From assembly GCA_045643005.1 (NCBI GenBank), contig JAZUJY010000152.1, positions 483-64,482 on the forward strand: 64,000 bases of DNA, read 5' to 3'. The stretch is from Oscillospiraceae bacterium (lineage in GTDB: Bacteria > Bacillota > Clostridia > Oscillospirales > Ruminococcaceae). A program made the position numbers and the translations under genes. This document shows, one piece after another, positions 1,775 to 32,150 of this stretch. Positions within the stretch are counted from its first letter, which is position 1; every line of letters starts with the position of its first letter. Under the pieces are notes generated by a model. It did no database searches. It had not been told where the DNA came from and worked only from the letters and a program-made list of their open reading frames with translations.

Positions 1775-2647
1775 TTGATGACACCATAGCATCAAAAACA
1801 AAACCATCATCAAAAGCATTACATCCAATAGAAGATGCATACTTCCACCAGTCTCATCTTAAAGGAAAGCAGGATTATGGACATCAGGCAGTTGGTGTTA
1901 TGCTTCCCTGCAACGGAATAACTCTAAATTATGATATTATTCTGTACGATAAATCTGTAAGTAAGATAGACCTTGTCTGCGGTATAGCTGACGAACTTAA
2001 AACTGCACCTAATGTTTCATACCTGCTTTGTGACAGCTGATATACATGCAGCAAAGTAACAGAAGCTTTTATCAGAAAAGGTTTCTATACAATCGTAGCA
2101 CTTAAAACAAACAGAATAATTTTTCCTTCAGGGGTTGACATCAGCATCAGTTAAGCTTGCTGAAAATATTCTGGAAGAAGATAATTTCTTTTACCCCGTT
2201 ACAGTTAAAGGAAACAAATACCTTGTTTTCAGATATGAATGCAATTTTAAAGATATTGATAACGCCGTTGTTCTCATAACTTATCCAGCAGGAGCTTTTC
2301 ATAATAAAAAGCCTCTTAGAGCTTTTGTAAGCACTAATTCTGCTCTTTCAACTGAAGAGATACTCAACATTTTTACTGAAAGATGGGATATTGAGGTTTT
2401 CTTTCGTGAGAGCAAGTCAAAACTTGCTCTTGATAAGTACCAGATAAGATCTTCAAAAGGAATAAAGAGATTCTGGACTATTTCATCTCTTGCTTATCTT
2501 ATTGCCTGTTCTGAATCTGATAGTTTTGACTTTACTGAGGGTTACTGCATTCTCATGAAAAAAATCAGTAATGATCGAATGGCTAATATTTTTAAATTTG
2601 CAAAAGACTGTGATACTCTTGAGGCCTTTTTGTCTTTTGTTGCTTGA
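1775..2647 (+). mobile_element. 5'-truncated, degenerate IS remnant (DDE transposase, IS4/IS701-like)
   Basis: The C-terminal part reads ...ILNIFTERWDIEVFFRESKSKLALDKYQIRSSKGIKRFW (the RW.IE..F...K......Q.R motif of IS4/IS701-type DDE transposases). Upstream, frame ...NVSYLLCDS*YTCSKVTEAFIRKGFYTIVALKTNRIIFPSG has TGA at 2038..2040 where DSWY is expected. There is a frame change near 2130. No N-terminal region or start codon is present. Confidence 0.6.
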
Positions 2648-2695: not shown

Positions 2696-3205
2696 TTAAT
2701 AACATACGATGCCATTATCAAATAAATCCATCGGCAAAAATTCTATCATTTCAGGAATCTCATTATTAACTAGTTTATACAAAAACTCTGTAGTAGTCAT
2801 ATCAAATTCATAGTAATCAGCATCCTCACCATATACTATGATAGTAATTGATTTAGTATTAATCTTCCAAAAAAATAATGCACCATTATCACAAATAGCC
2901 CACGGAATTATTCCATTTTTTTGCGGATAAAAATCAAATGGATAACCTTCACCCTTTTTATCTGTTAATCCATATTGATGATAAGCTTCTTTTAAATCTT
3001 CATATATTTCTTTTTGTTCCTGTATCTGTTCATTCCATACGTCATCATAAGGTGAAATAAACCAGATATAATCATTAAAGCCCCCAATTTGTTTTTTAAA
3101 AAATAAAGATGCATCTTCAGGCAATAACACACCTTTAATATCTATCATCGATTCCGTGTTATATTTTCTTGAATATTCATGTAATTCAGTTAGTAAATCA
3201 TTCAT
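2696..3205 (-). CDS. SMI1/KNR4 (SUKH-superfamily) immunity protein
   Basis: 169 aa. It carries LLPEDASLFFKKQIGGFNDYIWFISPYD plus later aromatic/acidic blocks typical of SUKH-1 immunity proteins. It overlaps the end of the upstream nuclease remnant by 8 nt. Confidence 0.7.
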   Translation of the reverse strand: MNDLLTELHEYSRKYNTESMIDIKGVLLPEDASLFFKKQIGGFNDYIWFISPYDDVWNEQIQEQKEIYEDLKEAYHQYGLTDKKGEGYPFDFYPQKNGIIPWAICDNGALFFWKINTKSITIIVYGEDADYYEFDMTTTEFLYKLVNNEIPEMIEFLPMDLFDNGIVCY

Positions 3206-4054
3206 AATAATTTAAACTATTTCCTTTCGAATTATTAAATATATTAACATACATTCTAAATCCTCTATTTCCATATGCTATCATTTGAATACTATATGGC
3301 ATTAGTTCATTTGATAAATAATATGGAATAACAGCATAATATACAGTTTCTCCTGAATCTCTTTTGGCTTTGACTTGAAATTCTACTTTTTTCATTATTG
3401 AATTATTAACTGCGTTTTGATAAAGTGTTACTAAATTTCGTGGATCTGAACCATCTCCGCCCAACTGTTTTGCAATTAAATGTCCTCTAGCATGTCCAGC
3501 ACCACCTTTACTTATTGAATTACCATTAACAAAACCTGAAGGTTTAATACTTGAAAGTGCTTTCGTGCCAGCTTGTGGCATAAAGCGCGTTATTTTTGCT
3601 AACGCTCCAGTTGCTCTTCCTAATCCATCTAATTCACTGTAAATTATCCAACCTATGTCATTTTTTTCTTTTTATTACTAACATCTTCTTGTACTAATTC
3701 TTCTGTAACACTATTACTAATATCCGTAGAATCCAGTACACCATCTGTAATCATCTCACAAATTGTATCACCAAACAACATGACTAAAGGTGCAGTAAAT
3801 AGTGTTGTAAACAATGTGATTCTTAGAGCTTTTAATGTGTTAATCGCCAGTAATGTTGATATATCTGATACGCCTTCTGCTGCATCAGACATTACACTTG
3901 AAATAGCTAAATCGCTCGAGGTCATATAACCGCTTGGATCCACATTCATTACAGGATCTGCATTTGCATACAGATATTTATGCAGTGAAACCGGATCAAA
4001 TATGCTTCCGGGATACGTATCCATCGACGTAAATGTTCCCGTCTGTGGATTCAT
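3198..4054 (-). pseudogene. Orphan RHS C-terminal toxin cassette 2 (Endonuclease_NS_2-like nuclease), frameshifted
   Basis: ORF 3653..4054 (MNPQTGTF...ELVQEDVSNKKKKMT*) and ORF 3198..3581 (…GGAGHARGHLIAKQLGGDGSDPRNLVTLYQNAVNNSIMKKVEFQV…VYYAVIPYY…) are two halves of one gene. The piece between them reads DIGWIIYSELDGLGRATGALAKITRFMPQAGT in the second frame, parallel to DLGWIIYGELDELGRATGAIAKLTRFMPMAGT of cassette 1. The frame breaks in the A7 run (T7 on plus, 3661..3667). Confidence 0.75.
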
Positions 4055-4089
4055 GTATCTTGCTCTGAGATAGTAAAATCCTGTTACAA
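3927..4089 (-). repeat. RHS core-tip repeat, copy 2 (~165 bp; homology to 6091..6302 decays upstream of YYLRARY)
   Basis: Direct nucleotide comparison. It is also ~390 bp near-identical to cassette 1 (about 3745..4089 versus 1380..1725), covering the hydrophobic pre-toxin segment. Confidence 0.85.
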
Positions 4090-4240
4090 TGTTTTCAAAG
4101 TTCTGATCTGTAGTTTACAGCCTCATATTAAAACTATTTGGTCAAGATAAAGCCCATAATCTTTTATGTGGAGGAATATCTGCATCGTCGTTATAAAAGC
4201 CTCCATGTTCATTCTTCAATGTCATCCCCTAATTTTTAAC

Positions 4241-4597: not shown

Positions 4598-4945
4598 TTA
4601 TATTTCATACCTATTGGTAAGGGTAATATACTCTTTAAACTTTTTATACAATCTAAAAAAAAGCTGTATTTCATTTTGATTTGAAGAGTTATTTTTTTGA
4701 ATTATTTCATACCAGTATTTCATATTGTGATTTTCATTTATTTGTTTTGAATCATACATCTCATTGATTACAAAATCTCTAAACATGCAATTAAAGTTTT
4801 TCTCATAACAAGTTTGCTGATTATTAATTTTTCTTGAATACAAATAACCCTCTATAAAATGATATAACGATTTATTATCAATATCATCACCTAAAAAAGC
4901 TCCAGGTCTTATTTCGATCTGTTTTATTAATTCATCTAAATTCAT
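4598..4945 (-). CDS. Putative cognate immunity protein of the RHS C-terminal toxin
   Basis: 115-aa ORF that starts 5 nt after the RHS stop on the same strand. It has no signal peptide (MNLDELIKQIEIRPGAFLGDDIDNKSLYHFIEGYLY...). The call rests on position only. Confidence 0.5.
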   Translation of the reverse strand: MNLDELIKQIEIRPGAFLGDDIDNKSLYHFIEGYLYSRKINNQQTCYEKNFNCMFRDFVINEMYDSKQINENHNMKYWYEIIQKNNSSNQNEIQLFFRLYKKFKEYITLTNRYEI

Positions 4946-4949
4946 TTTA

Positions 4950-7900
4950 TCACTCCAGTATCTTATAATCTATTGCACCAAAATAATACCCTAAGTCTCT
5001 AAGCCAATTTTTAAAATCCATTCCATCAAGTGAAAAATTATCATATACTATTCCATCAACTAAAACGCCATAATGATATCCATTGTTGCCAACATCTCCA
5101 TATTTGTCAGAATAAATATGTGGATATTCAGTAGTAACATAAACTTGATTTGATGGGATACCAGCTGCATTTAAATTTGCAGTAAGCTCATTTGCGAAAT
5201 TATCACACTGACCACTTTTCTTATATTTATCAGGAACTTTACTAACTGCTTTTTCTATATCTGACTGATCATAATTATGCACCAGCACCCCATCATCGCC
5301 AACAAAGTACGTATTATAACCTTCAACCTCAAGGTTATAAACCTTTATCACTTCATCCGGCTTTTCAAGCTCAGATCCTGTTACAACCGCACTATCTCCG
5401 TCAATAAGGTAAACCTCATCACCGTTTTCCAGATCACCTGCTGCCACCCAGCCTTTATCCATGACATAGAACGGATGATTTGTTGTTGTATCAATATCCC
5501 CTGCCGTTGTCTTCAGATGCAGTATCTCATCCTGATCATGAACATATACCGTCAATACTTCCTTAAGTTCTGTCTTTCCGGTATATATATCATATGCCCA
5601 TACCTTGTCCCCGACTTCGATCTCATCTATTCTTTTCTGTCCGTCTTCGGTTGATACAAGTGTATCTCCGGTGAAACATGTCTGACTCATGGACATCAGC
5701 TGAATAATAAGTTCGATTGTTCCCGTTACTGCAAGATCATATTTGCCTTCCTTGGTATAGTGAATAATACTCTGTACTTGTTGTCCAAGTCCTGCTGCGG
5801 TAAATATCTTTGTAAGAACCGGTCCGAGTCCCTTGATCTTACACATGAGATTGATAAATACCCCGGTTACTATTCCTCTTGCAGCTGCCCAGATTATATC
5901 TTCTGCAGTACTGTCAGGATCAAGTGCTGCCTCCATTATCTGTCTTCCGATATCATAGATCGTGCACATTATGTTTACAACATTAAGTACATTTTTCATC
6001 TTCTGATATGTTTTCAGATAATTCTTATATGTCTGGCTGTCAAGGATCTTGTCTATTACATTTCTTACCGATAATTCACCAAGTGTAAAATATCCGCTTG
6101 GATCCACATTCATTACAGGATCTGCATTTGCATACAGATATTTATGCAGTGAAACCGGATCAAATATGCTTCCGGGATACGTATCCATTGATGTAAATGT
6201 TCCCGTCTGCGGATTCATGTATCTTGCTCTGAGATAATAAAGCCCTGTTGCATTGTCATACTGCTCACCACAGTAGAGATAACTGTTTTCAGTTTCTCCC
6301 TCCTGAGATATCATATTTCCCCATGCATCGTATACATACGTATCTGTTACGTTTCCTTCTATATCCGAAAGCTGTCTTACTGAGCCGTGTCCGTCTGTCA
6401 GATATATGGATATTACTCCTTCTCTTTCCTGACTTATCAGTTCTTCGCCTCTTGTATAATGACATTTTACGTTTCCGTTTTCATCTCTTTCTTCAAGTAC
6501 CTGTGTGAGACTTCCGTATATATCATTGAGGTAATATGTTTTTTCTGCTTCTGTGAGCTTTGCTGTTCTGTTTCCTAAGCCGTCATATTCATACTCTTCT
6601 ACTGAAACATTATTTCCTTCCTGTACTGTTGCTCGGATCATTTTGTTTTCAGTATTGTATGTAAATGCTGAGATCTTTTCTCCTTCGGTTTTGCTTATCA
6701 GATTTCCTGCTTTGTCATATTCATAGACTGTTTCATTTTCACTGACAAGCTGATTAAGAACATTGTATACATATTCTGTTCTGACTCCGTTTTCGGTTTT
6801 TGCTGTTCTGTTGCTTACCTCGTCATATTCATATGTATATTCTGTAACTTTACCTTCATTGTCAGTTATCTTTTCTCCGGTCAGTCTGTAGAGTGCATCA
6901 TAGGTATACTCAACTGTTCTGTCAGTTTCTTCTGCCTTTATGCGTTCTCCTGATTTTCCGAGGCTATAAATATATGATGCCACAGTGCTGTTGTTTTTGT
7001 CAAGTATTTTTTCACTTACCAGACGATTTAACTTGTCATAGCTGTAGGTCACAGTCAAACCGTTTGCATACTCAACCTTTGATCTGTTTCCGTTTGCATC
7101 ATAGCTGTATGTTGTCGCATAACCGTTTTTGTCAACTACTCTTTCAATTCTGCTAAGTGCGTCATAGGAATATGTTTCTGTTCCATACGGCGTTTTTACT
7201 TTTGTAAGTCTTAAATAATCATCATATTCATATTCAACATAACTTCCGTCAGGATATCTTACTTTAGTAAGTCCGTCCATATTATCATAGTCAAAATATG
7301 TAGTCTTTCTGTCCATTGTGACAGATACAAGCAGATCATTTTTATATGAATAGGAATATTTATGATCGGCTGTTGTTTTGCTTATCATTCTGTCATACTG
7401 ATCATACGCATATTCAACAGTATTTCCGCCAAAATCTGTTGCTGACAAAACATTTCCGGTATTGTCATATGAAACTTCTGCTGTCTGACCTGCTGCATTT
7501 GTTGTTTTTACTGCTCGTCCGGCATTATCATAAACATAAGTTGTTACATGTCCGGCTGCATCTGTCACAGAAATAAGATTTCCAACTTCATCATACGAAT
7601 ATCTGGTGATATTTCCATAAGCATCAGAAAAACTGATAAGTCTGTCTGCTCCGTCATAGCTGTACTCTGTGATATATCCGTTCTGGTCTTTCTGAGAAGT
7701 CAGTCTTCCTCTTGCATCATATGCGGATTCAGAAGTTGTTCCGTCTGCATAAGTTACCTTTGTTCTGTTTCCGTTATCATCATATGTATATGTTACAGCA
7801 TTTCCTTTTGCATCTGTTACGGATGAGATCTGTGAATGTGAATCATATTTGAATTTCACTGTGTTTCCAAGAGCATCGATTATCGCAGTATTTTTTCCTG

Positions 7901-10900
7901 CCTTGTCATACTCATATTTCGTCTCTGCTCCGGTTACATCTGTAATGGTCAGAAGGTTATAAGCTGCATCATACAGATATGTTTCTGTAAGTCCGTTTGG
8001 ATATGTTTTTGAAAGAAGATTTCCAACCTTGTCATATTCCATCGTAACTTTTCTTCTGAGTCTGTCTGTTGCTGTCAGAGTGTTTCCTTCTGCATCATAT
8101 GTAAATGATTCGGTTGACAGATCAGGGTAAGTAATTTCAGTTACGTTTCCTGCATAGTCGTATTCATAACATGTCTGTCTGCCTTTATTATCAGTTTCCT
8201 TTATCAGATTTCCTATGCAGTCATATTCCTTTGATATTTCGTTTTTATCACTGTCGATCACTTTTACAGCATTTCCGTAAATATCATATGTATAGTTTTC
8301 GGTATAGACCTTTTCTTCCCCGTCTGATGTGTATGTGATCTTTTTGGAAATACAGTTATCTTCTGAATCATAGGTAAATTCTGTTACAGTTCCGGCTCCG
8401 TTTGTTGCGGTCTTTACATTTCCTCTTTCATCATAGGTTATATTCATAAATATTCCTATGCTGTCAGTTACGGAGTTGAGTCTTCCCTTCGAATCATAAT
8501 CATATTCTGTTTTATTTCCAAGTGCATCTGTCGTTGAAGATGTCAGTCCCATATCATTGTAATCAAGCTTAAGAATATCAATTCCCATAGCATTTATGGA
8601 TGTGATCATTCCCTTGCTGCTGTAACCATTTGTTACCTTGTTTCCTTCAGGATCTGTCATGGAAAGCAGAAGTCCGCTTTCATCATAATTATATGATGTT
8701 TCATATCCGAGTGCATCGGTCATTTTTGTTTTGTTGCCGTGTGCATCATACTCATATGTTACAGTATTTCCATTAGGATCAGTCATGGAAGTTACATTTC
8801 CGTTTTCATCATAAATGTAAAGAGTAACTCCGCCGTTTCTGTCAGTTATTACTTCCTGTCTGCCTTCTATATCATGATCATATGTGGTTTCTTTTCCGGC
8901 TTCATCTGTTGTTTTTATCAGTCTTCCGTTTTCATCATATACATTTTTTGAAACCAGTTTTCCTCTCGGATCGTATACTTCAGTAATATAATGATCGCTG
9001 TATACAAACTTTGTACTGTTTCCGGCTTCATCAGTTACACATACAAGATCTCCGAAAACATCATATTCATACTTAACAGTTTTTCCGGTACTGTTTGTCA
9101 TTTCAGTTATTCGGTTCCTGTCATCATAAGTAAACCTGATGGATTTGTTCGCCGACTTATCGGAACACTGTATGCTGTCTTTGGAAAATGTTATTATTTC
9201 TCCGTTTAAAGCGATTACTTTAGTAAGTCCTTTGTTTTTGTCAATATAATACTTTGTACCGTCATTTCGGGTATACAGAAACTGCTCCGGTTCAAATATG
9301 TCAAAATCAGTTGTACACAGAATACCTGATGCACTGTCAAACATAAGATCAGATGACGAAATATCCACTGACTCAAGTTCGGACTTTGAACCGTTGAGCG
9401 CAATAAATTTTACATTTATATTCTGGTATGCAGGTTGAAATACACTCTTTTGCGGTGAATCGATCACCATTGCAAATTCATCCCTGATCCCGTTTCCGAG
9501 ATCAACATTTATTCTGTGTGTTTTGCTTTCCATAAACTGATAGGATGATATCGGTACTCTGCCTGATAATGTATCCGGTGACTGATACCAGTTTTCTGAC
9601 AGCTTGCTGCTGAGAGTGAGCGATACGTTGTTATATTCAACATCCCATCCATACCCGAACGCACCTTTATAATCCTTTTTACGGCTGTCATACGTCCTGA
9701 TAACATTTACCGGCACTCCGTTCACATCAAAGCTCATATCCTCAAAGCTGAGCGTGAAATTGCCTATCTTCATGTTTCCGGTCACATTTACCGTGATCAT
9801 GTCTGCTGCTGTGTACTTGTCACTGTATGCAGTAAGTCTGATATCATAATATCCGTTTTCAAGAAGTGTAGTATCAAATTTTCCTGATACTTCAGACTTT
9901 TTACCTTTGCTGCCTGAATCGAATACAACAAAGTTATTTTCACCGGCAGGTGAATATTCAAACTTATAGTCTGAGAATATCTTCCCTGATATCTCACCCT
10001 TTATTTCCGATACTGATTTCAGTTCTGACATTTCTTCAGGAGATGTGATCCTGCAGGTGTACTGTTCAGCCGGTGCTGTTCTGTTATGTTTTACGGTTAC
10101 AGATGTATCTTCTGATACTGATATGTCATCTTTTAATACTTTCAGAGTAACAGTATATTTTCCGTCATCAAGCATTGAGGAATTTACTGATTCTGATATG
10201 CTGCAGTCATTTCCTACAGTGCCTTCCTTTGAAAATACAGGTTCACCGCTGTCATCTTTTTTTCTGACAGTGAGTTCATATTTTCCGGTTATGACAGATG
10301 CGTCAGTCTTTGCTTCTATTCTGATCGTATCATCTGCATAAACTGATGGCTGAGGCTTGTCAAATATGATAAGACTGTTCTCAAGATCTGCCGGATCTGT
10401 TTCCCTGTTGTTTTCTATCTGATAACATGCACCTGCATATGAGGTGTTGCCGCCGTTGTCGGTTACAGCTACTCTGATCTCATATGTTCCGTCTTCAAGT
10501 AAAAATGTATCCCATACGCCGAGTATACCGTCTCTGATCTCATTATATGAAGCTGCTATCGGTGTATATCCGCCTGAATCCTTCTTTCTGTATTCGAGAA
10601 CATATTCTCTCATCATTGTTTCATCAAAAGCAGAACCTTCAATATTTACTTTTCCGGACAGCTTTGACTCGTTTTCAGGTGATGTGATCTCTGCTGAAGG
10701 GAAATCATGGTCTGAACTGTCTTCAAATACGATTTCAAAACTCTTTTCATAAGTACGGTTTTTTGAGTCTGTCGCAACAGCCTTAAATACTACCACTCCC
10801 GGCTCTGCCTGAGTAAATTTTATCTCTGACGGTCCGTCTGCGATCTGTTTGTCGTTCTTGTATATGAGCAGCTTGACAAGACCGTCCTTGTCATCAGCAT

Positions 10901-13900
10901 TTATCTCAAGAGTTACTATTTCTCCGATCTCAGCTTTTTCTGATGAAGTATTGAATGTTATTTCAGCAGGAGTATCTTCTTTTTCCTGCTTATAGTCTGT
11001 ATTTGTATTTTTTTCTTTGGTTATTTTCTCGTTTGAAGATGATAACTGGTTCTTTTCTATTTTAAGATCCACTTTGCAGTATGATCTGTTTGACGACTTG
11101 TCACACGCTTCAATGAGTACAGTGTACTTTCCTGCTTCGGAATATCTGAATGATACTATCTCTGAATCAAACACTTCCTCACCTGAAGTCAGAAGCTCCC
11201 TGCTTTCTTCAGAACCGTTTTCAGTCAGGCTTACCTTGTAACTGTCAAATTCAGGATCCTTTATGGTTCCTTTTATCACAACAGTATCATCAGTAACTGT
11301 AATATCACTTTTTGTATCAACTATTATCTCAGGAGGATCAAGGTCTCTTCTGTCTGTAACTGTTATCGTCTTTGTATCACTGCCCTTATTTCCTGAAACG
11401 TCCTCACAGTCTGCCCTGATCACAAGTTCTCCGGCTCTGTCACATTTGTAAACAAAGCTTCCCGGGAACTTTGATATTGCTTTGCCTCCGACATATGTAT
11501 TTACAGATTTTATTCCTATATTATCATCCGGTGCAACAGAAACAAGGATCTCATCTCCGAGGCTCGGATTTTCATCTGATACAGTTATAACTACAGTCGG
11601 CGGTTCATCGTCTGAAAAAGGCTCGACATCATCGCCCTCAAGCTCGCTTATCACTTCTACACACGGGCTGCTCCATTCGCCAAGCTCATCACATACCATG
11701 TATTTCTGAAGATATACCTGATTTGCGTCTATTATTTTCGGAACGGTGCCGTTTGTCCAGCTGCTTTCATCAACTCTCTTCCACTCATATTTTTCTTTGG
11801 TTATACCCTTGTTTTCCTTACTGAGTGCATCTGTATCATACGCGCTGAATTCCAATTCACAGATATATTTTTTCTGTTCCTTTGCCTTTGAAAGCTTTGC
11901 TTTGATCTCTGCTGAAGGTTTGCTGTGAACAAACAGCCTGTCTGTCCACTTAACTTTTTCAGACCACTTTTTGTATGAATCAAGTGATGTGTTTCCGTTT
12001 GTCGGATCATCCATCAGCTTCGACCAGATACTGTAGCATCCGGTTTCACTGAAGGAAACAGGAGCTTCTTCAAGAGTGTATTTTCCGCTTTTGCCGGTGC
12101 TGTTTTCATATACCGAAGCATCAAGCTCATATTCCCACACCTGTTTTCCGACAGGATCATTTTCTCTGTCGATATAACTGTTGGTATATTCGATCTCATC
12201 AGATGTCGTGATCGTATCACCGATATCATAATTTATGCCTGACAAAGAATTTAAAATATAGTTTTTAAGTATATCCTTGTTCTTTATAACATCATACCAG
12301 TCGGCATATATTCCGTCTGCTGATCTTAAAACTTTGTCATACTGCTGTTTTGAAGCAGCAGTTCCGAGACCTATCAGAGCAGCATCATTTTCTATAAGAG
12401 ATTTTGCTGCACATCCGACTGACTGATCATCACTCAGATCATAGTTTTTGCTTTTGCTCAGATTTATAACAAAATGTTCGGCAGAATCTCTCCATTCATT
12501 TTTCTCAAGGATCTCACTGAATTCACTGCCGTTTACTGTTGACATTTTTATATCGCTGAATACAAAATATGATTCCTGTTCACAGTAATGTGATTTATGG
12601 AAAATTACCGGTCCGAATCCTGTTCCGCTTTCCTGCTCCGGCAGAACATAGTTATCCAGCATGAGCGTATCATTAATATATACAGTAAGTGTCTTCTCAC
12701 TTACGAGCAGTCTGATGTTGATCTTGTCATCGGTTTTCATCTGACTGAGAATATCATAAATATCCGAGTCAGACGGGAAATCTGATGCACTGAAGCTGCG
12801 TATGGGAGAAGCTCCTCCGCCGTTTCTGAAGGTTTCGATATCAACATCATCAAATTTATAGAGCTGAAAAGCACCTTCTGTTCGTATAAATGCAAGACCT
12901 GTTATTTTCTTTATGGTTTCTGAATCAGGATCATCAGGATCTGTCTTCTCATTATATATTTTTGTATTGAAGAGGAATCCTCCGCCTATCATACTATGCC
13001 AGTTATTATCATCTCTTCGCATATCAAATGACAGGATCCTTCTTGATTTGATACCGTCATCAACGAAAAGCCAGTCACGGAACGGATATACATGATAACC
13101 AAGCATTTTTACGGAATTATCCTCATATGTTATATGGTCCGGATAGATCGTTCCGTACAGATCCATATAATTTTTGTGATCATACTCTTCCCATGCAAAT
13201 TTGTCTTTGGCTGTAAGAGTGGATGCAGATATGGTGTTCAGATTTACATTGTATCCTCTCTCTTCAAGGTCGGCTTTTATTTCTTCAATGTTTTCATTAA
13301 GAATGTCTATATCATCAAGATCAGCATTTGACGCTGTAACTACGATATCAACATTTTTAGCCTTACTGATGCCTGAATATGACTCAGGTGCTTCATTTGT
13401 AACCTCTGTTACAAAATTTCCGTCAGCTGCTGATGACGTATCAGCTACAAGATATGACTCTTCTGTCAGAAGTGAAGGAATAGTATCATCGATCTGTTCT
13501 GCAACACTCAGCTTAAATTTATACTTTCCGACTGAATCAGCTGTATATACGGCATTTTTTTCGTTTCCGACAAGAAATACCTCTTCCTTTTCATCTGAAA
13601 AATCTCCGTCGTTATCGCTGTCAAACTGTACAGACCATACTCTGCTTCCGATAGTATCTCCGTCAGGAGAATATGATGTGTCTTCGAGTTTTATCTCGGC
13701 TTTTCCGTCTTCGTCTCTGCCTGTGATATCAGTTTCCTTCCAGAAGCCTGCCACTGGGGCAATATCCTCAGTTACATTTATTACTTCATAGTATTTTACA
13801 CTCTTGCCTGTATTATCTTTTCCGGAAAGCTCGGCATGATAAATACCCGGCTTCGTGATGATAAGGTTCTTCGTAATTTCTGTAGAAGTACTCTCATCGA

Positions 13901-14795
13901 CCTTAACACATGCTGCATCTTCAGGCAAGTCAGCTGTAAAATTCCATTCAAGAGAAGAAACATCAATATCCTTAAGACCAAAGCTGTCAGAAATATCAAG
14001 CGTTATCTTTCTGTTCTGCTTATATGTTTCTTCAAAATTCTTAAATTCTATCTCCGGTGCAAAGTTTACAAGCGAGGAATCATGATCTGATATACTGTTC
14101 ATCTTAAAATCAGTACCGTTTATCTCAACATTTTCAGCAACGATCATTCCGTTTACGGTAAGATTTTTAGCGTTTATCTCAACCTTGCCTTTTGGTGCAT
14201 AGAGAATTCCATTGATAGTGATATCTGTTCCCTGAACAGTAATATTTCCGTTTTCAGAATACAGAAACAGCTCTGCACTGTCTTCATTTTTCACAGCATC
14301 ATACTGGATATCGTTTTTGGCTCTGATATATCCTTTACCGGAAAATGCTGTTCTGTCTATCCACAGATCACCTGCTGACATTACAGAATCAGAAATATTG
14401 TATTCATTTGTATTAAAATGAACTTTATCTTCTGTAAAAACATTTTTGTAGTTTACACCGTTTTTCAGCTGATTTCTGTAATCAGGCATGACTGTGCGCA
14501 CATCTGTCTGTGAAACAGCCTGAACATTTCCTGATATTTTACCGGAATTTAATGTATCATTTACATAGCAGCTTCCGTTTCCGCAAAAATCAAATTCACT
14601 GCCGGAAAATACTCTTCCGTTTATGGAGGCTCTCTCCATATTTACTGTGATCTTCTTTTCTGAATATATGGTGTGCTCCATATCAAGAGGTGCAGCAAAA
14701 ACACTCTCAGGAAGCGATGACATTCCAAGCTGAAGTGTCATGGTAAGAGACAACGCTGCTGCAAGAGCTTTTTTCAGTATCTTTGTATGCTTCAT
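4950..14795 (-). CDS. Secreted RHS/YD-repeat polymorphic toxin (about 3,281 aa) with HINT domain and C-terminal toxin
   Basis: The likely start is [34 protein letters not shown] (signal peptide) at 14795, with AGGAG ~10 nt upstream; the track start at 14858 overlaps the upstream gene. The N-terminal half contains Ig-like/beta-sandwich repeats. Dozens of YD repeats follow (YDxxGN..., e.g. [26 protein letters not shown]). The RHS core end is [16 protein letters not shown]...NVDPSGY. Confidence 0.92.
   Translation of the reverse strand: [3281 protein letters not shown]
4953..5273 (-). other. C-terminal 107-aa toxin domain, family not recognised (possible papain-like Cys/His/Asp fold)
   Basis: Sequence: [40 protein letters not shown]...[23 protein letters not shown].... 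There is a single Cys preceded by Gln, a His in a hydrophobic strand ~55 aa later, and Asp/Asn ~12 aa after that. Confidence 0.4.
5274..5678 (-). other. HINT (Hedgehog/intein-like) autoprocessing domain inside the RHS C-terminal cargo
   Basis: 135 aa. It begins [30 protein letters not shown], has TTNHPFYV in the middle, and ends [23 protein letters not shown]. Block A Cys, block B TxxH and the terminal HN are all present. The next residue is Tyr. Confidence 0.8.
6090..9715 (-). other. YD-repeat/RHS shell-encoding region of the toxin gene
   Basis: It runs from ...[26 protein letters not shown] (about 9660) to NVDPSGY (6090). The YD/YxYDxxGR-type repeats are continuous. Confidence 0.85.
6091..6302 (-). 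repeat. RHS core-tip repeat, master copy inside the full-length gene
   Basis: It encodes [36 protein letters not shown]...DPSGY and is matched by 1559..1770 and 3927..4089. Confidence 0.9.
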
Positions 14796-14796
14796 G

Positions 14797-15780
14797 TTAT
14801 CTCTTCTCCTTTCTTCTGAGTACAATGCTTCCTGCAGCTGATACCCCTGATACAACAAGCATAATAATACTTCTCACAGGGAATGAATCTGAAGTATCAG
14901 GTGAAGAAACCAGCCTGACTTTACTGTCATCTCCGGTATTTACATCATTTCTGATACCGTAGTATGTAACAAATTCTTTGTTTAAAACATTTGACTCAGG
15001 TTCCCATTTTACAGCAGCAGCTGTATCTGTCAGTATGGAATTTATATCCGGAGTATATTCCCACACTGCATCGTAAAGTACACCCCAGTCAGCAAATATC
15101 AGACTGTCAGGCGTATTTTCATCTGTATTTGTTTTTCCGTAAGCAGCTATTTTTTCATTGCTTCCTGCTGTAACGCTCCAGCTGTCAGGAATATTTTCAC
15201 TGAACACAGCCTCGTTTGAGACAGGTGTATTGTCAACTCTTACTGACGGAACATCGTCCCCGGAAAGCATCGGATCAATAAGGATCCTGACACCTATGGA
15301 GTCATTTTCCCCTGCCGAAATAACTTTGTAGGAAATTCTGAGCATATCTTCATAATCAGGTGTATATACTTCAGAAAAAGCAAGAGTCTGCTCTATTATC
15401 ACATCTCCGAATTTCTGAGCCGAAATATGACATCTGTTGTCAATATCATACTTCGGCTCACCAATATCCTCACCTCGTCCGTACTCATAGTACGAACCGT
15501 TGATGCAAAGTGTAGTATAACCGGAGTAAAAATTTCTGTAGGTTATATTTTTATTGTCGTCCTCATCGTTATATGTCTTTCCGCCCGTCGTTGACAGCTT
15601 GTATCTGAGATACTCTCCCTCTCTCTTATCCTGTTCAACGTTTAAGCTTAAAAAAGAATTTTCCATGGAGACATTGTTAAAATACGCCTTACTGTCCGCA
15701 GCAAAGCATACTGCTCCTGTAAAAAGCGAAATTGCGAAACTTGCAGTTAATACGATCTGTGCAATTTTTTTAGCTTTCAT
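14797..15780 (-). CDS. Secreted, C-terminally anchored protein of unknown family, translationally coupled to the RHS gene
   Basis: The likely start is MKAKKIAQIVLTASFAISLFTGAVCFA (signal peptide) at 15780, with GAAGGA 5 nt upstream. The C-terminus is ...SSPDTSDSFPVRSIIMLVVSGVSAAGSIVLRRKEKR (hydrophobic helix plus basic tail). Its stop TAA is separated from the RHS ATG by 1 nt. Confidence 0.7.
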   Translation of the reverse strand: MKAKKIAQIVLTASFAISLFTGAVCFAADSKAYFNNVSMENSFLSLNVEQDKREGEYLRYKLSTTGGKTYNDEDDNKNITYRNFYSGYTTLCINGSYYEYGRGEDIGEPKYDIDNRCHISAQKFGDVIIEQTLAFSEVYTPDYEDMLRISYKVISAGENDSIGVRILIDPMLSGDDVPSVRVDNTPVSNEAVFSENIPDSWSVTAGSNEKIAAYGKTNTDENTPDSLIFADWGVLYDAVWEYTPDINSILTDTAAAVKWEPESNVLNKEFVTYYGIRNDVNTGDDSKVRLVSSPDTSDSFPVRSIIMLVVSGVSAAGSIVLRRKEKR

Positions 15781-16084
15781 TTTCGTCCTTCTTTCAAAAA
15801 AATAAAGGGACAGCGATTTGCTCGCCATCCCCTCAGATATTTTAGCACACTATTATAAAGAAAGAAATCCATAAAAATTCTAAAGATTTTCATTTAAGTT
15901 ATTAAGGATATGTGCAGATATTATAATTATTTTGCGGTTTAAAACATTTTGTATTATCATGAAAAGTAGATCTTACCAGCGCTGATTTTACATTCAGATG
16001 TGAAGTAACTGCCGTTCTAAAATATAACGGCAAACGCAGCAGAGAAGTAATAGGACATTCAAACGAATTAAAATTTACTATTGG

Positions 16085-21696: not shown

Positions 21697-24213
21697 TTAG
21701 CGGGGACCGAGAACTTTAACTGAACTGTCCTTGCTGATATACTGCTTGAAGTGCGGAAGATCGGCAATATCAAACTCGCCGCTGCCGTCAACATCTGCAG
21801 CCTTCTTCAGGCTTTCAGGAATGTTGTGATTCATAAGATAGATACTCATCTTTGTAAGGTCTGTCAGATCTGCTACACCGTCACCGTTAAGGTCACCATA
21901 AACAAATTCTGAGTTGCTTGCTGAACCTGAATCATTTTTCTTTGATGTAGTGGTTGTTTCTTTTACATCTGAAGTAGCTGTTGTAGTTTTCTGTTCTTCT
22001 TTTTTTGCTGTATCAGGAACAGTACCGTCAGGCTCTGTTCCGCCTACGAGAACACCGTCATCATAAACACAGATGTTCGGATTTTCTTCTTCATTTCCGT
22101 TTCCGAAAAATGCATCGTCTTTATCATAGATCTTAAGACCGTTATAGCTCCAGTCGTTTGAAGGATCCCATTTGTCGCCGTAATAAAGACCAAGGATGAA
22201 CTGATATTTTTTACCTGAGTTTGCGATTGCATATCCGTCCCAGTCAACGTCAACATAGTATGTATCAGCGAGCTTTTCATATTTGAACGGACCAGACATT
22301 ATTCCGTCTGCATCTTCTACTTCAGCTGATGACTGATCGTAAAGTTCCTTGGCTGTATTTACTGCATCGATACCGCCTGAAATTTCCTTGATATTGAAGA
22401 AGTAACGAACTTTAACCTTTGTTGAAGGCTTGGTTGCACCTGAGCAAACCTTGAAGGAAACCTTTGTTACACCTGCGCCGTCAGCATTTATATCATCGAT
22501 ACCGCATGCTTCAACCCAGTAACCGCTTGATGAAGAACCGCCGTTTGCATCATCTCCGCCTCTCTTTTCGTCTTCCGGAGGGAAGTTTGGAGTCGGAGCC
22601 ATGTCAGCTGTTCCAAAGTATTCGTAAAGACCTGCACATGCTCCAACAAAAGCAGCATTGTAGTCGATAGTAACTTCGTTTCCTACCCAGTCTGAAGTAA
22701 CGTCTGTATGTGAGTCAGCATCGTCCGGACCGCCTGCAAGAGCACCCCAGAGGATGTGTCTGTGTTCACGAGGATCTTCTGCTTCAAGAAGTCCTGATGC
22801 TGCACGGTGATGAGGATATTTTACAGAGCTGTCGTTGTATCCTACGATATAGCATCTGTTCATCGGGTTATCACCCATGATATAATGCATCTGCTTCTGA
22901 GCCCATTCACTGTTTGCGCCCGGCTTTCCGCCGTTGTGATATTTGTCGATAAGAAGAGCTATAAGCTGCATAGCAGTGTTGTATCTTGCAGAACCCCAGA
23001 TCTGAAGGAATGCATATCCTCCCGGAGTTTCAAGTGCCTGCCATGTAGGCATGCATTTTTCAACTTCTTCCCATATGTTGTCAAATACATACTGATTTTT
23101 GCCCTGAGCTTTTCTGATAACATTTATAAGATCGAGTTCAGGATGTGTTTCATTTATTACTGCCCATCTGAGTCCGGCACCGCTCCATACATCGTTCCAG
23201 CAGTAGCACCAGCCTGAAGGAGCATAATAGTCGTAGTAAGGTGCAGCCATTTCCATATATGTGCTGTCGCCTGTACATTCATAAAGCCATGAAGCAGCCC
23301 AGCAGTAATCATCTTCCCATTTGTTTGATTTATAGTACTGTTTCGGACCGTCACCGTTATCAGATACTTCAAGTTCATGTGAATTTGCGAAATCCCAGAG
23401 TGCTATAGCATAGTCAAGTGATTTTTCAGCATAATCGGGATCTGTATCCTTAAAGTTGAGATAGTTTATTGCAAGAGAAGCAGCTGCAGATACAACATAA
23501 TCTGTCTGCGGCTTATCAGCTGTAAGGAAAAATGCAGGTCTTGCCATTGAGTCAACTTCAGGAGCTTCCCAGATTGCATGGTCAATATCACCGTCACCTA
23601 CCTGGTAACAATGTGCAACGACTTCACCGTTTTTGTCACGGAATGTACATTTCATAAGGTAATCGTTGAAGCATCTTACTATCTCTTCGATATGGTCGTC
23701 CTGACCTGTCTTAACGTATGCATCACGGAACTCATAATAACCCCATCCGAGTGTAGCAGCTGCATAGTTTTCAGGCATACCGAATTCTACATGGTCACCT
23801 GCGTCGTGGAAACCGCCGGCAACGTCAACGTATCCGTCTCCGTCCGGATCAAGTACATCCTTGAGCTTGCTTATCTGAGCTGCAGAAAGGTTTGTACCTA
23901 CATTTTTTGAATCCATAGGCTGAAGCGGAACCTTTGCATCGTATGTGTGACAGTTGCCTCTCCATGACAGACGGTTATGTTCTTCAACCTCCGTACCGCA
24001 CATATTGGCATCGTAAAAATAAATAGAATACTGAAGAGCACGAGCATAGTCATAATCCAGACCTGAGTCATTTACAACCTCGCTTATCGGTGCAGCCTTT
24101 GTTTCCTCTGTCTTTCCTGCAGCTATTGCAGCAGTTGAAGAAACAGTTGAAGCAAGTACCACAGCACTGACAGCCGCAGCACCGATCCTGCTTAGAAACT
24201 TTTCATTTTTCAT
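21697..24213 (-). CDS. Cellulosomal glycoside hydrolase family 9 endoglucanase with CBM3c-like module and C-terminal dockerin
   Basis: The likely start is MKNEKFLSRIGAAAVSAVVLAST (signal peptide) at 24213, with GGAGAAAGG upstream. GH9 motifs are ALQYSIYFYDANMCG, LSWRGNCH, GGFHDAGDHVEFGMP and YPHHRAASG. The dockerin is VYGDLNGDGVADLTDLTKMSIYL...DVDGSGEFDIADLPHFKQYI. Confidence 0.92.
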   Translation of the reverse strand: MKNEKFLSRIGAAAVSAVVLASTVSSTAAIAAGKTEETKAAPISEVVNDSGLDYDYARALQYSIYFYDANMCGTEVEEHNRLSWRGNCHTYDAKVPLQPMDSKNVGTNLSAAQISKLKDVLDPDGDGYVDVAGGFHDAGDHVEFGMPENYAAATLGWGYYEFRDAYVKTGQDDHIEEIVRCFNDYLMKCTFRDKNGEVVAHCYQVGDGDIDHAIWEAPEVDSMARPAFFLTADKPQTDYVVSAAASLAINYLNFKDTDPDYAEKSLDYAIALWDFANSHELEVSDNGDGPKQYYKSNKWEDDYCWAASWLYECTGDSTYMEMAAPYYDYYAPSGWCYCWNDVWSGAGLRWAVINETHPELDLINVIRKAQGKNQYVFDNIWEEVEKCMPTWQALETPGGYAFLQIWGSARYNTAMQLIALLIDKYHNGGKPGANSEWAQKQMHYIMGDNPMNRCYIVGYNDSSVKYPHHRAASGLLEAEDPREHRHILWGALAGGPDDADSHTDVTSDWVGNEVTIDYNAAFVGACAGLYEYFGTADMAPTPNFPPEDEKRGGDDANGGSSSSGYWVEACGIDDINADGAGVTKVSFKVCSGATKPSTKVKVRYFFNIKEISGGIDAVNTAKELYDQSSAEVEDADGIMSGPFKYEKLADTYYVDVDWDGYAIANSGKKYQFILGLYYGDKWDPSNDWSYNGLKIYDKDDAFFGNGNEEENPNICVYDDGVLVGGTEPDGTVPDTAKKEEQKTTTATSDVKETTTTSKKNDSGSASNSEFVYGDLNGDGVADLTDLTKMSIYLMNHNIPESLKKAADVDGSGEFDIADLPHFKQYISKDSSVKVLGPR

Positions 24214-24593
24214 TTTAAATTCCTTTCTCCAAAAAATACTTTTCGCTATTCCGTTCATAATATATGACCGGGCATCCCGAATACATCCCACATACCATTC
24301 AACCATACTACATGTAATTATATCATATTTTTATAAAAAAAGAAATTCTTTTAATTATAAAAAAATACAATCATTTTTATCAAAAAAACAAATAAGTGTA
24401 AAAAAATTGTCAGCGATACTTTCCGAAAAGTACACAAATCATTTTATTATAAAATGTGCATAACAACTATTTTGTAATATACTCTTGATTATTTTTTATA
24501 AATGTTGTATAATATATATATAAATTTGATACGGTTTTTTTATTTTATAGGGATAAATTAATCAAAATAAATAACAAAAAGGGGGAATTGTGA

Positions 24594-27356: not shown

Positions 27357-28010
27357 ATGAAAAAGGATTTTACAGAAATAGTTTTTATACTTGACGAAAG
27401 CGGCTCAATGTCTAACCTTAAAAGTGACACTATCGGTGGTTTCAACTCAATGATTGAAAAACAGAAGACTGAGAACGGTGATGCTGCAGTAACAACGATC
27501 ATGTTCAGTACTGAAAGCAGAATCGTTCATGACAGAGAAGATATCAGCAAGATCGAAGAAATGACCGGCAAGCAGTACTGTCCGGGCGGATGTACAGCAC
27601 TTTTTGATGCAGTCGGCGGTGCAGTAGATCACATCTCTTCGATCCACAAATATGCACGTGAAGAAGACAGACCTGAACATACGATATTTATCATTACTAC
27701 CGATGGTATGGAAAATGCAAGCAGAAAATACTCAAAACAGGATGTAAAGAAAATGATCGAAGCACAAAAGGAAAACGGCTGGGAATTTGTCTTCCTTGGG
27801 GCAAATATTGATGCTGCTCAGGCCGCTGCTGATATAGGGATCTGCAGGGAAAGCGCTGTTGACTATGTTCCCGACTCATTCGGAACTCATACTCTGTTCA
27901 AAGCTGTATCCTGTGCTGTTTCAAACGCAAGAATGGGCAGAAAGAATTCTGAGTACCAAAAGTGGCGAGAAGAAGCAGATCTGTATATGGAAACAAAAAG
28001 CAGACATTGA
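27357..28010 (+). CDS. Stand-alone von Willebrand factor A (vWA) domain protein
   Basis: IVFILDESGSMS supplies the MIDAS DxSGS motif, followed by GGCTALFDAVG and IFIITTDGMEN. There is no signal peptide or TM segment. SD is GGAGG. Confidence 0.8.
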   Translation: MKKDFTEIVFILDESGSMSNLKSDTIGGFNSMIEKQKTENGDAAVTTIMFSTESRIVHDREDISKIEEMTGKQYCPGGCTALFDAVGGAVDHISSIHKYAREEDRPEHTIFIITTDGMENASRKYSKQDVKKMIEAQKENGWEFVFLGANIDAAQAAADIGICRESAVDYVPDSFGTHTLFKAVSCAVSNARMGRKNSEYQKWREEADLYMETKSRH

Positions 28011-28130
28011 TCGCGGAATATTCGTTATGCTTTTTTCTATACATCTGCTTGCAAAATTCCCGGATTTTATGCTATACTGATTCTGAAACATACAGTCTTC
28101 AATTAAATCGAAAGGAACCATTCAGTTGTT

Positions 28131-28688
28131 ATGGAAATATTTGATATCGTAGACGAAAAAGGCGATCCTACGGGAGAAACAGTGGAAAGAAACGAAGCAC
28201 ACGACAAAGGGATCAGACACCGTACTGCTCACACATGGGTTGCAAGGAATAATAACGGTCATACCGAATTTCTTCTGCAGAAAAGGAATGACGACAAGGA
28301 GAGCTTTCCGGGCTGCTACGACACATCATCTGCAGGACATATTCATGCCGGAGACGAGCCGCTCGTATCAGCACTCAGAGAACTTGAGGAAGAGCTGGGG
28401 ATCAAAGCAGAGGCTTCTGAATTAAACTTCGCAGGTACATTCATTGTTGATTATGAAAAAGAATTTTTCGGAAGGATCTTCCGAGACAAAGAGATCCCTT
28501 TTGTTTTTGTCTATACGAAAAATGTTGATATTTCAAATCTTAAGCTTCAGAAAGAAGAGGTATCCGGAGTAAAATGGTTTACTGCCGAAGAAATATCCGA
28601 CATGATCACAAGACATGACAAAATATGCTGTGTTCCGAAAAACGGATTTTTGCTTGCAGAAAAATGGTGCAGTATCAACTTAAAATAA
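28131..28688 (+). CDS. NUDIX hydrolase
   Basis: Nudix box GHIHAGDEPLVSALRELEEELGI (G-x5-E-x7-REUxEExGU). Confidence 0.85.
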   Translation: MEIFDIVDEKGDPTGETVERNEAHDKGIRHRTAHTWVARNNNGHTEFLLQKRNDDKESFPGCYDTSSAGHIHAGDEPLVSALRELEEELGIKAEASELNFAGTFIVDYEKEFFGRIFRDKEIPFVFVYTKNVDISNLKLQKEEVSGVKWFTAEEISDMITRHDKICCVPKNGFLLAEKWCSINLK

Positions 28689-28700
28689 CAGAGAAAAAAA

Positions 28701-28739
28701 GGTGTATGCGATCCTTTCAGGGATACATACACCTTTTTT
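28701..28739 (+). terminator. Rho-independent terminator of the Nudix gene
   Basis: GGTGTATG...CATACACC followed by TTTTTT. Confidence 0.75.
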
Positions 28740-28871
28740 CAGCTCTTTTTTTACTCATCCGCAGTCATATATCCGAACAATACTTGCTCAAATCTGAGAA
28801 GCGATGTCATTCAGTTATTTATCTTCGGATAATTAAGCACAGACCGATACTTTCAAAATGTCAGAAGCACA

Positions 28872-29357
28872 TCAGAACAGCGACAAAACAGCAGCCATAA
28901 GTGCTGCTATCAACGGGAATCCCACGATCGTTCCTATCCATTTTCTTATCATGGTTTTTTTAGGAACATACGGCATCAGATCCTCTGTTCCCGGGATCAC
29001 CCAGGCTTTTGTCCTGCCTACCCAGTACCAGTCGATAAATATCCTGTCAAAAAGTCCCTCGATCATCAAAACGCCAAGGGACTGACAAAAAGATTCTCCA
29101 AAGCCTCTTGCACCGTTTATGAAATAAACCATCAGAGGGATCAGTACAAGCATCGGAACAAACAAAGCCAGAGCTGCCGCTGTCTTTCTCTTTTTCAGCT
29201 TTTCTTCAGTGATAAGACCTTTCTCCACTACTCTCTTACGGACCTCCGGCTCATAAAAATACACAGAGCCGACAGGACCATCCGCTATCCCTACCACACA
29301 TACGAGAAGCATCAAAAAGCACATGGCAAAGCCTTCGATCATAATTTTTAATATCAT
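28872..29357 (-). CDS. Small integral membrane protein (about 4 TM segments)
   Basis: I prefer the start MILKIMIEGFAMCFLMLLVCVV at 29357, with GGGGAGAGG upstream. The longer track ORF would overlap the upstream gene. Confidence 0.6.
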   Translation of the reverse strand: MILKIMIEGFAMCFLMLLVCVVGIADGPVGSVYFYEPEVRKRVVEKGLITEEKLKKRKTAAALALFVPMLVLIPLMVYFINGARGFGESFCQSLGVLMIEGLFDRIFIDWYWVGRTKAWVIPGTEDLMPYVPKKTMIRKWIGTIVGFPLIAALMAAVLSLF

Positions 29358-29370
29358 TTTCCTCTCCCCA

Positions 29371-30576: not shown

Positions 30577-30599
30577 AAATAATTGCTCCTTTTCTTTTT

Positions 30600-30665
30600 T
30601 TCAAAGCTATGTTTTCATCGAGCAGCGGCGATTTGAAGGCTCGGTTCCTGATCCTGCGGAAGATA
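30600..30665 (+). repeat. Degenerate copy E of the intergenic repeat
   Basis: TTCAAAGCTATGTTTTCATCGAGCAGCGGCGATTTGAAGGCTCGGTTCC aligns with the 5' half of copy A at roughly 70% by eye. Confidence 0.55.
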
Positions 30666-30813
30666 TTCATCTTCGTCGCTGTCTCAGCTCACACTGTATC
30701 ATCATTATATCATTTATCACATAGTCATACAAGTACAAAAATATATAAAAAATCTTCCGGAAATCTGTAATATGATCCCCGGAAGATGCTGTCAGGTTTT
30801 CTTTAAAGTTTTC

Positions 30814-30985
30814 TTATTTTTTGGGTGTCAGACTGTATACTGTATTTTCTTTCTGGCTGAACGCAAGCAGAACGCCTGTTTTGTCAGGTGCTATGACCAG
30901 GTCAAAAAGCGGAAAACCTGCTTCTTTTTCATCAAGAAGCTTTGTACATGTGTTATTATAATTTTTTTCTTTTTCGTAATATATG
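30814..30985 (-). pseudogene. Startless C-terminal gene remnant with retained terminator
   Basis: The frame reads ...YYEKEKNYNNTCTKLLDEKEAGFPLFDLVIAPDKTGVLLAFSQKENTVYSLTPKK* with no ATG/GTG/TTG after the upstream in-frame TAA. It is followed on the minus strand by hairpin ATCTTCCGG/CCGGAAGAT (about 30753..30790) plus a T-run. Confidence 0.3.
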
Positions 30986-31122
30986 ATAATATTTTAGCAT
31001 ATGATGATTTTCAGGTCAATCAAACATATAAACTCAAAAAAATCAAAAGAACGCTTCTCCGTTTCAAAGACGGAAAAAGCGTTCTTCTGTAGTATATTTC
31101 TTAAAAAATCATTCTATTTTGA

Positions 31123-31857: not shown

Positions 31858-31894
31858 ATATCCCATCCCCCATTCGTTATTCTGAAATCAAAAA

Positions 31895-31965
31895 GTACAA
31901 TCTGCGACTGTCTGGTCAGCGATTCTACGAATCGCCTCTGCTTGTTAAAAGCAGAGCTTTGAACA
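31895..31965 (-). repeat. Truncated copy D of the intergenic repeat (reverse orientation)
   Basis: GTACAATCTGCGACTG..GCGATTCTACGAATCGCCTCTGCTTGTTAAAAGCAGAGCTTTGAACA matches the reverse complement of the 5' half of copy A. Confidence 0.8.
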
Positions 31966-32150
31966 AATTTAATCATAACAAATGCTGTTCTTCAAAACCT
32001 TTTTTCGATAAAGGCTCTGAAAAAACAACGACTGCGTAAAAAACAATTACGCAGTCGTCCGGTAGAATTATCAGTTTAAGTGATCTGCTGCCGAAAATGC
32101 AGCTTCAAAAACTACTGACTATTCAAAAAGTAATTTGGCTGTTGTAAATA

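Follow-up and report, generated by a model that had tools for sequence, protein, structure and literature searches.

A minus-strand gene in a 64,000-nucleotide window of DNA from an Oscillospiraceae bacterium (assembly GCA_045643005.1, contig JAZUJY010000152.1, positions 483 to 64,482 of the forward strand) encodes a large protein whose C-terminus consists, in order, of an RHS tip, a 137-aa helical spacer, a 135-aa HINT domain, and a 107-aa Tox-PL-2 toxin. What is new here is the spacer, a conserved helical segment without a family name that is paired with a HINT domain in every clear relative examined. The open reading frame (ORF) spans 4950-14858 of the window and has 3302 aa when counted from the first TTG, which is the numbering used below. 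A Pfam scan of the whole protein returned RHS_repeat (PF05593, E = 2.4e-119), PT-HINT (E = 2.6e-26), and Tox-PL-2 (E = 5e-11), together with DUF6531 and Ig-like domains. By sequence and by modeling the protein is almost certainly an RHS/PT-HINT polymorphic toxin, and as a matter of genome annotation the gene forms an ordinary polymorphic toxin locus. All of the strings quoted in the original prediction, made from the DNA sequence alone, were located in this minus-strand ORF; the plus-strand reading of 5274-6090 was dropped, as those frames contain stops throughout.

The cassette of tip, spacer, and HINT domain is compact and widespread, and it is constant before many interchangeable small toxins. 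It would be a good system in which to study how Gram-positive bacteria move RHS-borne enzymes across the membranes of their neighbors without a type VI secretion system (T6SS). It also raises the questions of what a HINT domain does when the RHS tip already cuts, and of whether a single-chain cage has the capacity for 42 kDa.

An unnamed helical spacer lies between the RHS tip and the HINT domain

The spacer (5679-6089, minus strand) comprises F2924-T3060 and contains GIVTGVFINLMCKIKGLGPVLTKIFTAAGLG (aa 2995-3025) and AVTGTIELIIQLMSMSQT (aa 3043-3060). It has no name in Pfam or NCBIfam: a Pfam search extended to E = 1 returned nothing beyond noise below the thresholds, and NCBIfam gave nothing. 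Nor did the region find a match when phmmer was run against the PDB, again at E up to 1. AlphaFold, in two independent runs, predicted five helices at spacer positions 3-17, 19-56, 62-88, 90-113, and 117-133. The third and fourth of these correspond to a hydrophobic pair (5751-5906, minus strand; aa 2985-3036, AEDIIWAAARGIVTGVFINLMCKIKGLGPVLTKIFTAAGLGQQVQSIIHYTK) joined at a conserved LGP turn. The whole segment had been described as rich in small and hydrophobic residues. That description fits the central part (roughly aa 2985-3036) and does not extend to the rest, since there are 25 charged residues over the 138 aa counted from Tyr2923.

The family to which the spacer belongs becomes visible only with a query that combines the tip, the spacer, and the HINT domain. 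This query recovered 1229 proteins at E ≤ 1e-5, with near-full query coverage in most of the top 120, whereas spacer-only queries recovered 4 proteins by word index and 24 representatives by full HMMER. One of these 24, P0132, was rejected as a spurious cadherin match. With P0132 set aside, an RHS tip preceded the spacer and a HINT domain followed it in every scanned relative having enough flanking sequence. The distance from the DPxG motif to the HINT Cys ranged from 127 to 154 aa in 104 relatives and fell between 130 and 138 aa in 98 of them. Spacer length is tightly kept, and sequence is not. Two length classes, 129-132 aa and 137-138 aa, differ by a 7-residue insertion equivalent to two helical turns at spacer positions 28-34 (window about 5988-6008). 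The window protein belongs to the longer class, and the insertion is absent from about 80% of relatives.

Species-representative genomes held at least 30 such loci, spread over Ruminococcus, Oscillospiraceae, Lachnospiraceae, and further Clostridia of the rumen and gut. Among the loci listed, the spacer measured 129-137 aa, the HINT domain was 135-136 aa long in nearly all complete ones, and the tails ran from 86 to 146 aa, with one of 57 aa in an end-truncated contig. Some of the genes are full length, with more than 2000 aa preceding the module, and others are orphan cassettes; the spacing is the same in both. Conservation in an alignment of 82 sequences ends at VLVHN, the end of the HINT domain, and beyond this point the tails represent many toxin families, among them AHH, LHH, WHH, HNH, colicin DNase, REase, deaminase, ART, and RNase, most tails being about 80-130 aa long.

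As an architecture, the stacking of tip, spacer, and HINT domain was already known and is not unusual; it is common in gut Clostridia. The original prediction had called it unusual, a claim overturned by the numbers and conserved spacing above and by the survey of Zhang, de Souza, Anantharaman, Iyer, and Aravind 2012 (Biol Direct 7:18), which lists HINT with all types of stalk repeat, RHS included, and gives HINT, RHS, and firmicutes in its row for Tox-PL-2. The RHS/PT-HINT toxins of that survey have the same order as seen here, with a Sec signal, RHS repeats, HINT, a small variable toxin, an immunity gene, and orphan cassettes. HINT is described there as standing directly before the toxin in proteins exported by Sec, type V secretion, type VII secretion (T7SS), or TcdB/TcaC routes, and never by T6SS. 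The conserved helical segment of about 130-137 aa between tip and HINT is neither named nor discussed in the passages of the survey drawn on here; these predate the closed RHS cage and do not raise the question of cargo size.

Two predicted autoproteolytic sites flank the spacer

The spacer is preceded by an RHS/YD shell (6090-9776, minus strand; aa 1695-2923, 1229 aa) that extends from a DUF6531 plug region, matched by Pfam at aa 1695-1743, through 18 stretches of RHS_repeat to the tip. The closest sequence matches of the shell in the PDB were single-chain T6SS Rhs cages (8h8a, 8qja, 7q97, and 8cp6), with E values down to 1.6e-59. The tip itself (6090-6236, minus strand) matched the RHS-associated core model TIGR03696 of NCBIfam with E = 1.2e-11 and 44.9 bits against a cutoff of 32.5. 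It carries an aspartyl-protease signature comprising R2877 and R2879 (in RARY), D2892 (in SMD), DPVSL at 2900-2904, and PVMNVDPSGY at 2914-2923, which includes D2919. The last seven residues, NVDPSGY (aa 2917-2923), lie at 6090-6110. These signature residues were nearly invariant among 82 aligned relatives, and D2892 and D2919 line up with the conserved Asp residues of solved Rhs tips. PVMNVDPSGY matches the boundary motif PxxxxDPxG(L), with Tyr standing where Leu is expected, and the two DPxx motifs are spaced by 14 residues in the window protein versus 17 in Rhs1.

Comparison with solved chains places a cut at the end of this motif. The processed chain of 8h8a ends in …DPTGF, exactly opposite DPSGY and Tyr2923, while the 1402-aa chain of 8h8b has APTGF at the same position and runs on past the tip. 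Rhs1 is cut behind its DPLGL motif, whose D1338 acts in catalysis. The window protein, compared in sequence and structure, has an intact aspartyl-protease tip, which is predicted to cut after Tyr2923 by means of the putative catalytic pair D2919 and D2892. When the isolated tip (6039-6341, minus strand) was used as the query, its top PDB sequence matches were the mosquito salivary gland surface proteins SGS4 and SGS1 (9on3 and 8fjp), which outranked bacterial Rhs proteins and TcC.

The spacer is followed by a PT-HINT, or A-type bacterial intein-like (BIL), domain (5274-5678, minus strand; C3061-N3195) that runs from CFTGDTLV through TTNHPFYV to GVLVHN. Pfam PF07591 scored 92.9 bits (cutoff 27.7), the match spanning profile positions 1-136 of 137. 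The catalytic set is present as Cys1 (C3061), T3125-x-x-H3128, N3175, H3194, and N3195, and the Cys1, the block-B TxxH, N3175, and the terminal His-Asn were invariant in the 82-sequence alignment. By sequence, the domain matched 2LWY (E = 1.3e-25) and the HINT domain of UmbC (8W20, E = 8.9e-14) in the PDB. An AlphaFold model based on the same alignment gave a Hint fold with a predicted local distance difference test (pLDDT) score of 93-98. Foldseek superimposed this model on 2LWY with a template modeling score of 0.94, a root mean square deviation of 1.1 Å, and 43% identity, followed by BIL2, mini-inteins, and Hedgehog (1AT0). The domain calls of the original prediction, namely an RHS tip with DPxG, a complete HINT domain with Cys1, TxxH, and His-Asn, a Tyr at +1, and a small warhead, were thus all borne out by Pfam, PDB, and alignment comparisons. 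The assignment of the domain to the PT-HINT class of Zhang and Aravind and the expected Hint fold stood as well.

Two of these matches are instructive as known systems. 2LWY is a C. thermocellum A-type BIL domain (Amitai 2003; Dassa 2004) that shares with the window domain Cys1, TxxH, the terminal His-Asn, and the lack of a +1 nucleophile, and it too has a hypervariable secreted host protein. UmbC of the Streptomyces umbrella particle also has a HINT domain directly before a polymorphic C-terminal toxin. Its stalk is an ALF-repeat coiled coil with no RHS cage, and its HINT domain and toxin are exposed at the stalk tip and were not resolved in the structure; the parts of the UmbC report drawn on here describe no HINT processing.

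The residue following the window HINT domain is Tyr3196, and the original prediction had taken the lack of Cys, Ser, or Thr at +1 to argue for cleavage over splicing. Among relatives this position is Tyr in 51 of 113 and Ser or Thr in 15, with E, A, K, Q, and others in the remainder. Splicing is reported for an A-type domain of C. thermocellum whose native +1 residue is Ala. With an A-type BIL domain as the nearest solved relative, the lack of a +1 nucleophile is not decisive. Splicing without one has been reported, going by the title of a paper. Were the HINT domain to splice here, the freed amino end of the toxin would attack the Cys1 thioester and yield a 27-kDa fusion of spacer and toxin without HINT. 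Such an outcome would suit the 43% identity to the C. thermocellum domain as well as the invariance of Cys1 and TxxH, residues for which C-terminal cleavage alone would have no need. We nonetheless regard splicing as improbable: a review holds that A-type BIL domains self-cleave but are unable to ligate their flanks, the high variability of the +1 residue indicates no selection for a ligation-competent junction, and Zhang et al. 2012, in the passages drawn on here, predict release by cleavage. A canonical intein was rejected, since Tyr occupies +1 and the domain resides in a hypervariable toxin, even though the fold is shared. HINT-mediated release of the toxin is in our judgment likely.

A 97% identical relative from a metagenome, P0001 (131 aa), has the spacer fused directly to the C-terminal half of a HINT domain. 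The junction reads …KIFIAAG followed by NLENGDEVYLIDGD…VLVHNYPGNGTG, resembling an internal deletion or a recombinant remnant.

Cargo size and a possible membrane role for the spacer

The original prediction had the helix bundle, the HINT domain, and the warhead encapsulated together. The sequence behind the tip amounts to 42.3 kDa, or about 51,200 Å3 at protein density, and published single-chain Rhs cavities are 28,000-35,000 Å3 and hold less than 25 kDa, with observed cargo of 9-20 kDa. Even four-turn Tc cocoons hold about 30 kDa. At 1229 aa the window shell is close to those of Rhs1 (1086 aa) and Tse5 (1121 aa) and falls into the single-chain size class. Because of this disparity in size, enclosure of the whole 42-kDa cargo within the cage is doubtful.

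The spacer alone, at 15.2 kDa and about 18,400 Å3, would fill a cavity of 28,000-35,000 Å3 much as toxins of 15-16 kDa do, while the full cargo would need at least 51,200 Å3. One alternative, then, is a topology like that of the teneurins, whose YD shells bear a toxin-like C-terminal region so large that it exceeds the cavity and is located outside it. Only the spacer would occupy the cage, serving as filler or tether, and a HINT cut would free the external toxin from this caged anchor. The shell length and the conservation of spacer length without sequence are both in keeping with such an arrangement. Teneurins lack tip autoproteolysis and HINT, however, whereas the window tip retains its catalytic Asp residues; an exit gap is not known in bacterial cages; the HINT-less orphan cassette described below already represents 25 kDa of cargo; and the cavity size of the window shell is taken from its size class only. 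This topology strikes us as less likely than not, though as a serious alternative; it concerns only where the spacer lies and is compatible with a membrane role.

Such a role is suggested by the hydrophobic helix pair, which has a low hydrophobic moment and a charged fraction of at most 13%. The maximum of the Kyte-Doolittle scale over 19 residues had a median of 1.84 in the family and was 1.6 or higher in 77 of 105 relatives. On the Hessa scale the summed value for the pair did not exceed 0 in 23 of 105 relatives, as compared to +12 to +16 kcal/mol for HINT and toxin controls, and some relatives have a helix of transmembrane grade, for example VLMGIAAVVIGVVAVIAFA. The helix pair is therefore membrane-like at the family level.

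A pair of this kind could also act in the producing cell, as a stop-transfer hairpin that anchors the protein in the membrane with the RHS tip and the HINT domain as two release sites. The protein is predicted to be Sec-exported, Pfam found no LPXTG, SLH, dockerin, or other wall-anchor domain in it, and one helix is of transmembrane grade in the same 23 of 105 relatives. Against this, the segment has too much polarity to insert stably in the window protein and in about half of the family (Hessa sum above 4), the post-tip sequence points into the cage in solved Rhs proteins, and the strict coupling to HINT would be left unexplained. We consider a producer-membrane anchor quite improbable.

We propose instead the following sequence of events, which on balance we favor as a whole. 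A cut of the RHS tip after Tyr2923 would detach the C-terminal cassette, and cyclization of Asn3195 by the HINT domain would free the variable toxin. The HINT domain probably also cuts its own N-terminal junction by way of the Cys3061 thioester. The spacer would be the constant, membrane-handling part of the cassette, with its hydrophobic helix pair shielded in or at the RHS cage, as with the 16-kDa Tse5-CT, and would then insert into the cytoplasmic membrane of the target and help HINT and toxin across. In Tse5, the shell acts as chaperone to a 16-kDa fragment that inserts into membranes, and brings it to bilayers. Most of the partner tails have nucleic acids as their targets, and the tails lack the length for an entry domain, so that entry must come from a constant part upstream. 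By this elimination, and by the precedent of Tse5, we regard the spacer as a possible membrane-entry module, at a confidence well short of even. A more elaborate form of the proposal is more speculative still: the 130-137-aa segment may be a previously undescribed membrane-entry domain specific to Sec-exported RHS toxins of gut and rumen Clostridia, caged and obligatorily paired with HINT, while HINT and toxin stand outside the shell, tethered by the caged spacer, and two autoproteolytic cuts in sequence first unlatch and then release the toxin. The scheme puts HINT and toxin outside on the ground that 42 kDa of post-tip cargo is too much for a single-chain cage.

The likeness to Tse5-CT might be taken further, with the spacer as a pore-forming toxin in its own right and the HINT-toxin portion as a second warhead. 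The size of 15 kDa, the position behind the tip, and the hydrophobic helix pair are all as in Tse5-CT, and to these features of size, position, and hydrophobicity the likeness is limited, given that no resemblance of the spacer to Tse5 was found by sequence (phmmer against the PDB at E up to 1) or by fold (Foldseek). Among the relatives scanned, moreover, the spacer never occurred without HINT and a further toxin. Comparison of the window with 17 related loci turned up no conserved gene downstream as a candidate for spacer immunity, which argues against the spacer as an autonomous toxin. Pore formation as a toxic activity of its own is very improbable.

The T6SS Rhs effectors (Rhs1/Tre23, 7PQ5; RhsA, 7Q97; Tse5, 8CP6; and the RhsP-like 8H8A) resemble the window protein in having a shell of about 1100-1200 aa, a PxxxxDPxG tip motif followed by a hydrophobic residue, and a shared catalytic Asp. 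They differ in their delivery by PAAR/VgrG, their 9-20-kDa cargo, and the lack of a second protease, whereas the window protein has a Sec signal, a 1650-aa Ig-like stalk, and the larger cargo with HINT.

Several results weigh against the proposed sequence of events. The spacer was modeled with low to moderate confidence, its pLDDT being 51-87 in context and 52.8 when modeled alone, and a Foldseek search of the PDB with the spacer-only model gave a best E of 0.88, which is not meaningful, leaving the segment without a structural analogue. The membrane character of the helix pair is marginal in the window protein itself, where the Kyte-Doolittle maximum is 1.7 and the Hessa sum is +3.1 kcal/mol, as compared to +3.6 for its own signal peptide; the membrane-interacting helix bundle of the original prediction is accordingly plausible for the family and borderline for this member. 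If the HINT domain cut before membrane passage, the spacer could no longer carry the toxin across. The cargo is larger than the known capacity of single-chain cages, with the capacity of the window shell judged from its size class. Finally, literature searches found no experimental paper on RHS-HINT proteins, and the cleavage, encapsulation, and membrane steps are what we infer. The earlier description of the arrangement as mechanistically untested holds to that extent for the RHS-HINT combination, and not for the HINT class itself.

The toxin locus, its orphan cassettes, and its host

The toxin tail (4953-5273, minus strand; Y3196-E3302) gave on its own E = 5e-12 and 46.4 bits with Tox-PL-2 (PF15643; cutoff 25 bits), identifying it as a papain-fold peptidase toxin. 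The C…NxxH…DN signature given for Tox-PL-2 in Table 2 of Zhang et al. 2012 is found here as C3218 (GQCDNF), N3259-x-x-H3262 (NGYH), and D3273-N3274 (YDN). Four nucleotides past the toxin stop is an ORF encoding 115 aa without a signal peptide (4598-4945, minus strand), the candidate cognate immunity gene. Its product had no Pfam match at E up to 1, none therefore to Imm73, the immunity family that goes with Tox-PL-2, and none in NCBIfam. It is weakly similar (38% over 39 aa, pairwise E = 1e-5) to the product of the ORF right after a Tox-PL-2 homologue in the metagenomic locus L031.

Two orphan cassettes lie farther downstream on the same strand. The first (3198-4054) is disrupted into two ORFs, 3653-4054 and 3198-3581, and has an RHS tip, a different hydrophobic spacer, and an Endonuclease_NS_2 fragment without HINT. 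It is followed by a possible immunity gene (2696-3205, minus strand) with a weak SUKH_6 match (E = 0.026, 15.5 bits, below the cutoff of 27). The second cassette (865-1686) encodes 273 aa consisting of an RHS tip, a hydrophobic spacer, and Endonuclease_NS_2, again without HINT. The 43-aa tip of both cassettes is identical to that of the main gene. The orphan-cassette spacer includes the hydrophobic helix ALRITLFTTLFAAPLVMLF; it showed no BLASTP similarity to the HINT-linked spacer, and that of the second cassette (aa 44-150) retrieved from an index of 5.8 billion proteins nothing but the other copy in the window. These results give no support to a homologous hydrophobic entry segment shared by all cassettes, the orphan spacer being unlike the HINT-linked one and without outside relatives.

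A repeat search found the 218-nt DNA that encodes the tip at 6085-6302, 1553-1770, and 3921-4138, with 97% and 80% identity between copies. This repeat is likely a recombination substrate for cassette swapping, and its three copies, together with the identical tips of the orphans, place the swap point of the window locus at the tip. Across the family the swap point also lies at the HINT end, and some orphans of L031 begin within HINT. Positions 4001-9449 of L031 constitute an orphan-cassette array in which an ORF with tip, spacer, HINT, and Tox-PL-2 is followed by two small ORFs, a 237-aa ORF that begins inside HINT and ends in an AHH nuclease, Imm11, and another HINT-containing fragment. Given the ORF that begins inside HINT, recombination seems to use the HINT-coding sequence as well.

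The true start of the toxin gene is likely the internal ATG at 14795 (MKHTKIL…), a start supported by a 343-aa ORF directly upstream (14797-15828, minus strand) that overlaps the first 62 nt of the TTG-started ORF. This upstream ORF had no match in Pfam. From the ATG the protein would begin with a probable Sec-type signal peptide (14694-14795, minus strand; aa 22-55, MKHTKILKKALAAALSLTMTLQLGMSSLPESVFA), as read by eye from the sequence. No T6SS or T7SS genes were found near the toxin gene in the window.

Elsewhere in the window are five dockerin-bearing proteins (21697-24306, 40515-43130, 49171-53652, 55756-58518, and 58765-61437), comprising a GH9, a GH2 with Laminin_G, a CotH with a lamin-tail domain, and two CotH proteins with a Cthe_2159 carbohydrate-binding domain, the latter two being a tandem paralogue pair. 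These five proteins mark the host as a cellulosome-producing Clostridial bacterium that is Ruminococcus-like. Between the two orphan cassettes there is also a fragment of a DDE transposase (PF01609, E = 2.5e-6; 2135-2647, plus strand), which may have caused the duplication or the disruption of the cassette array.

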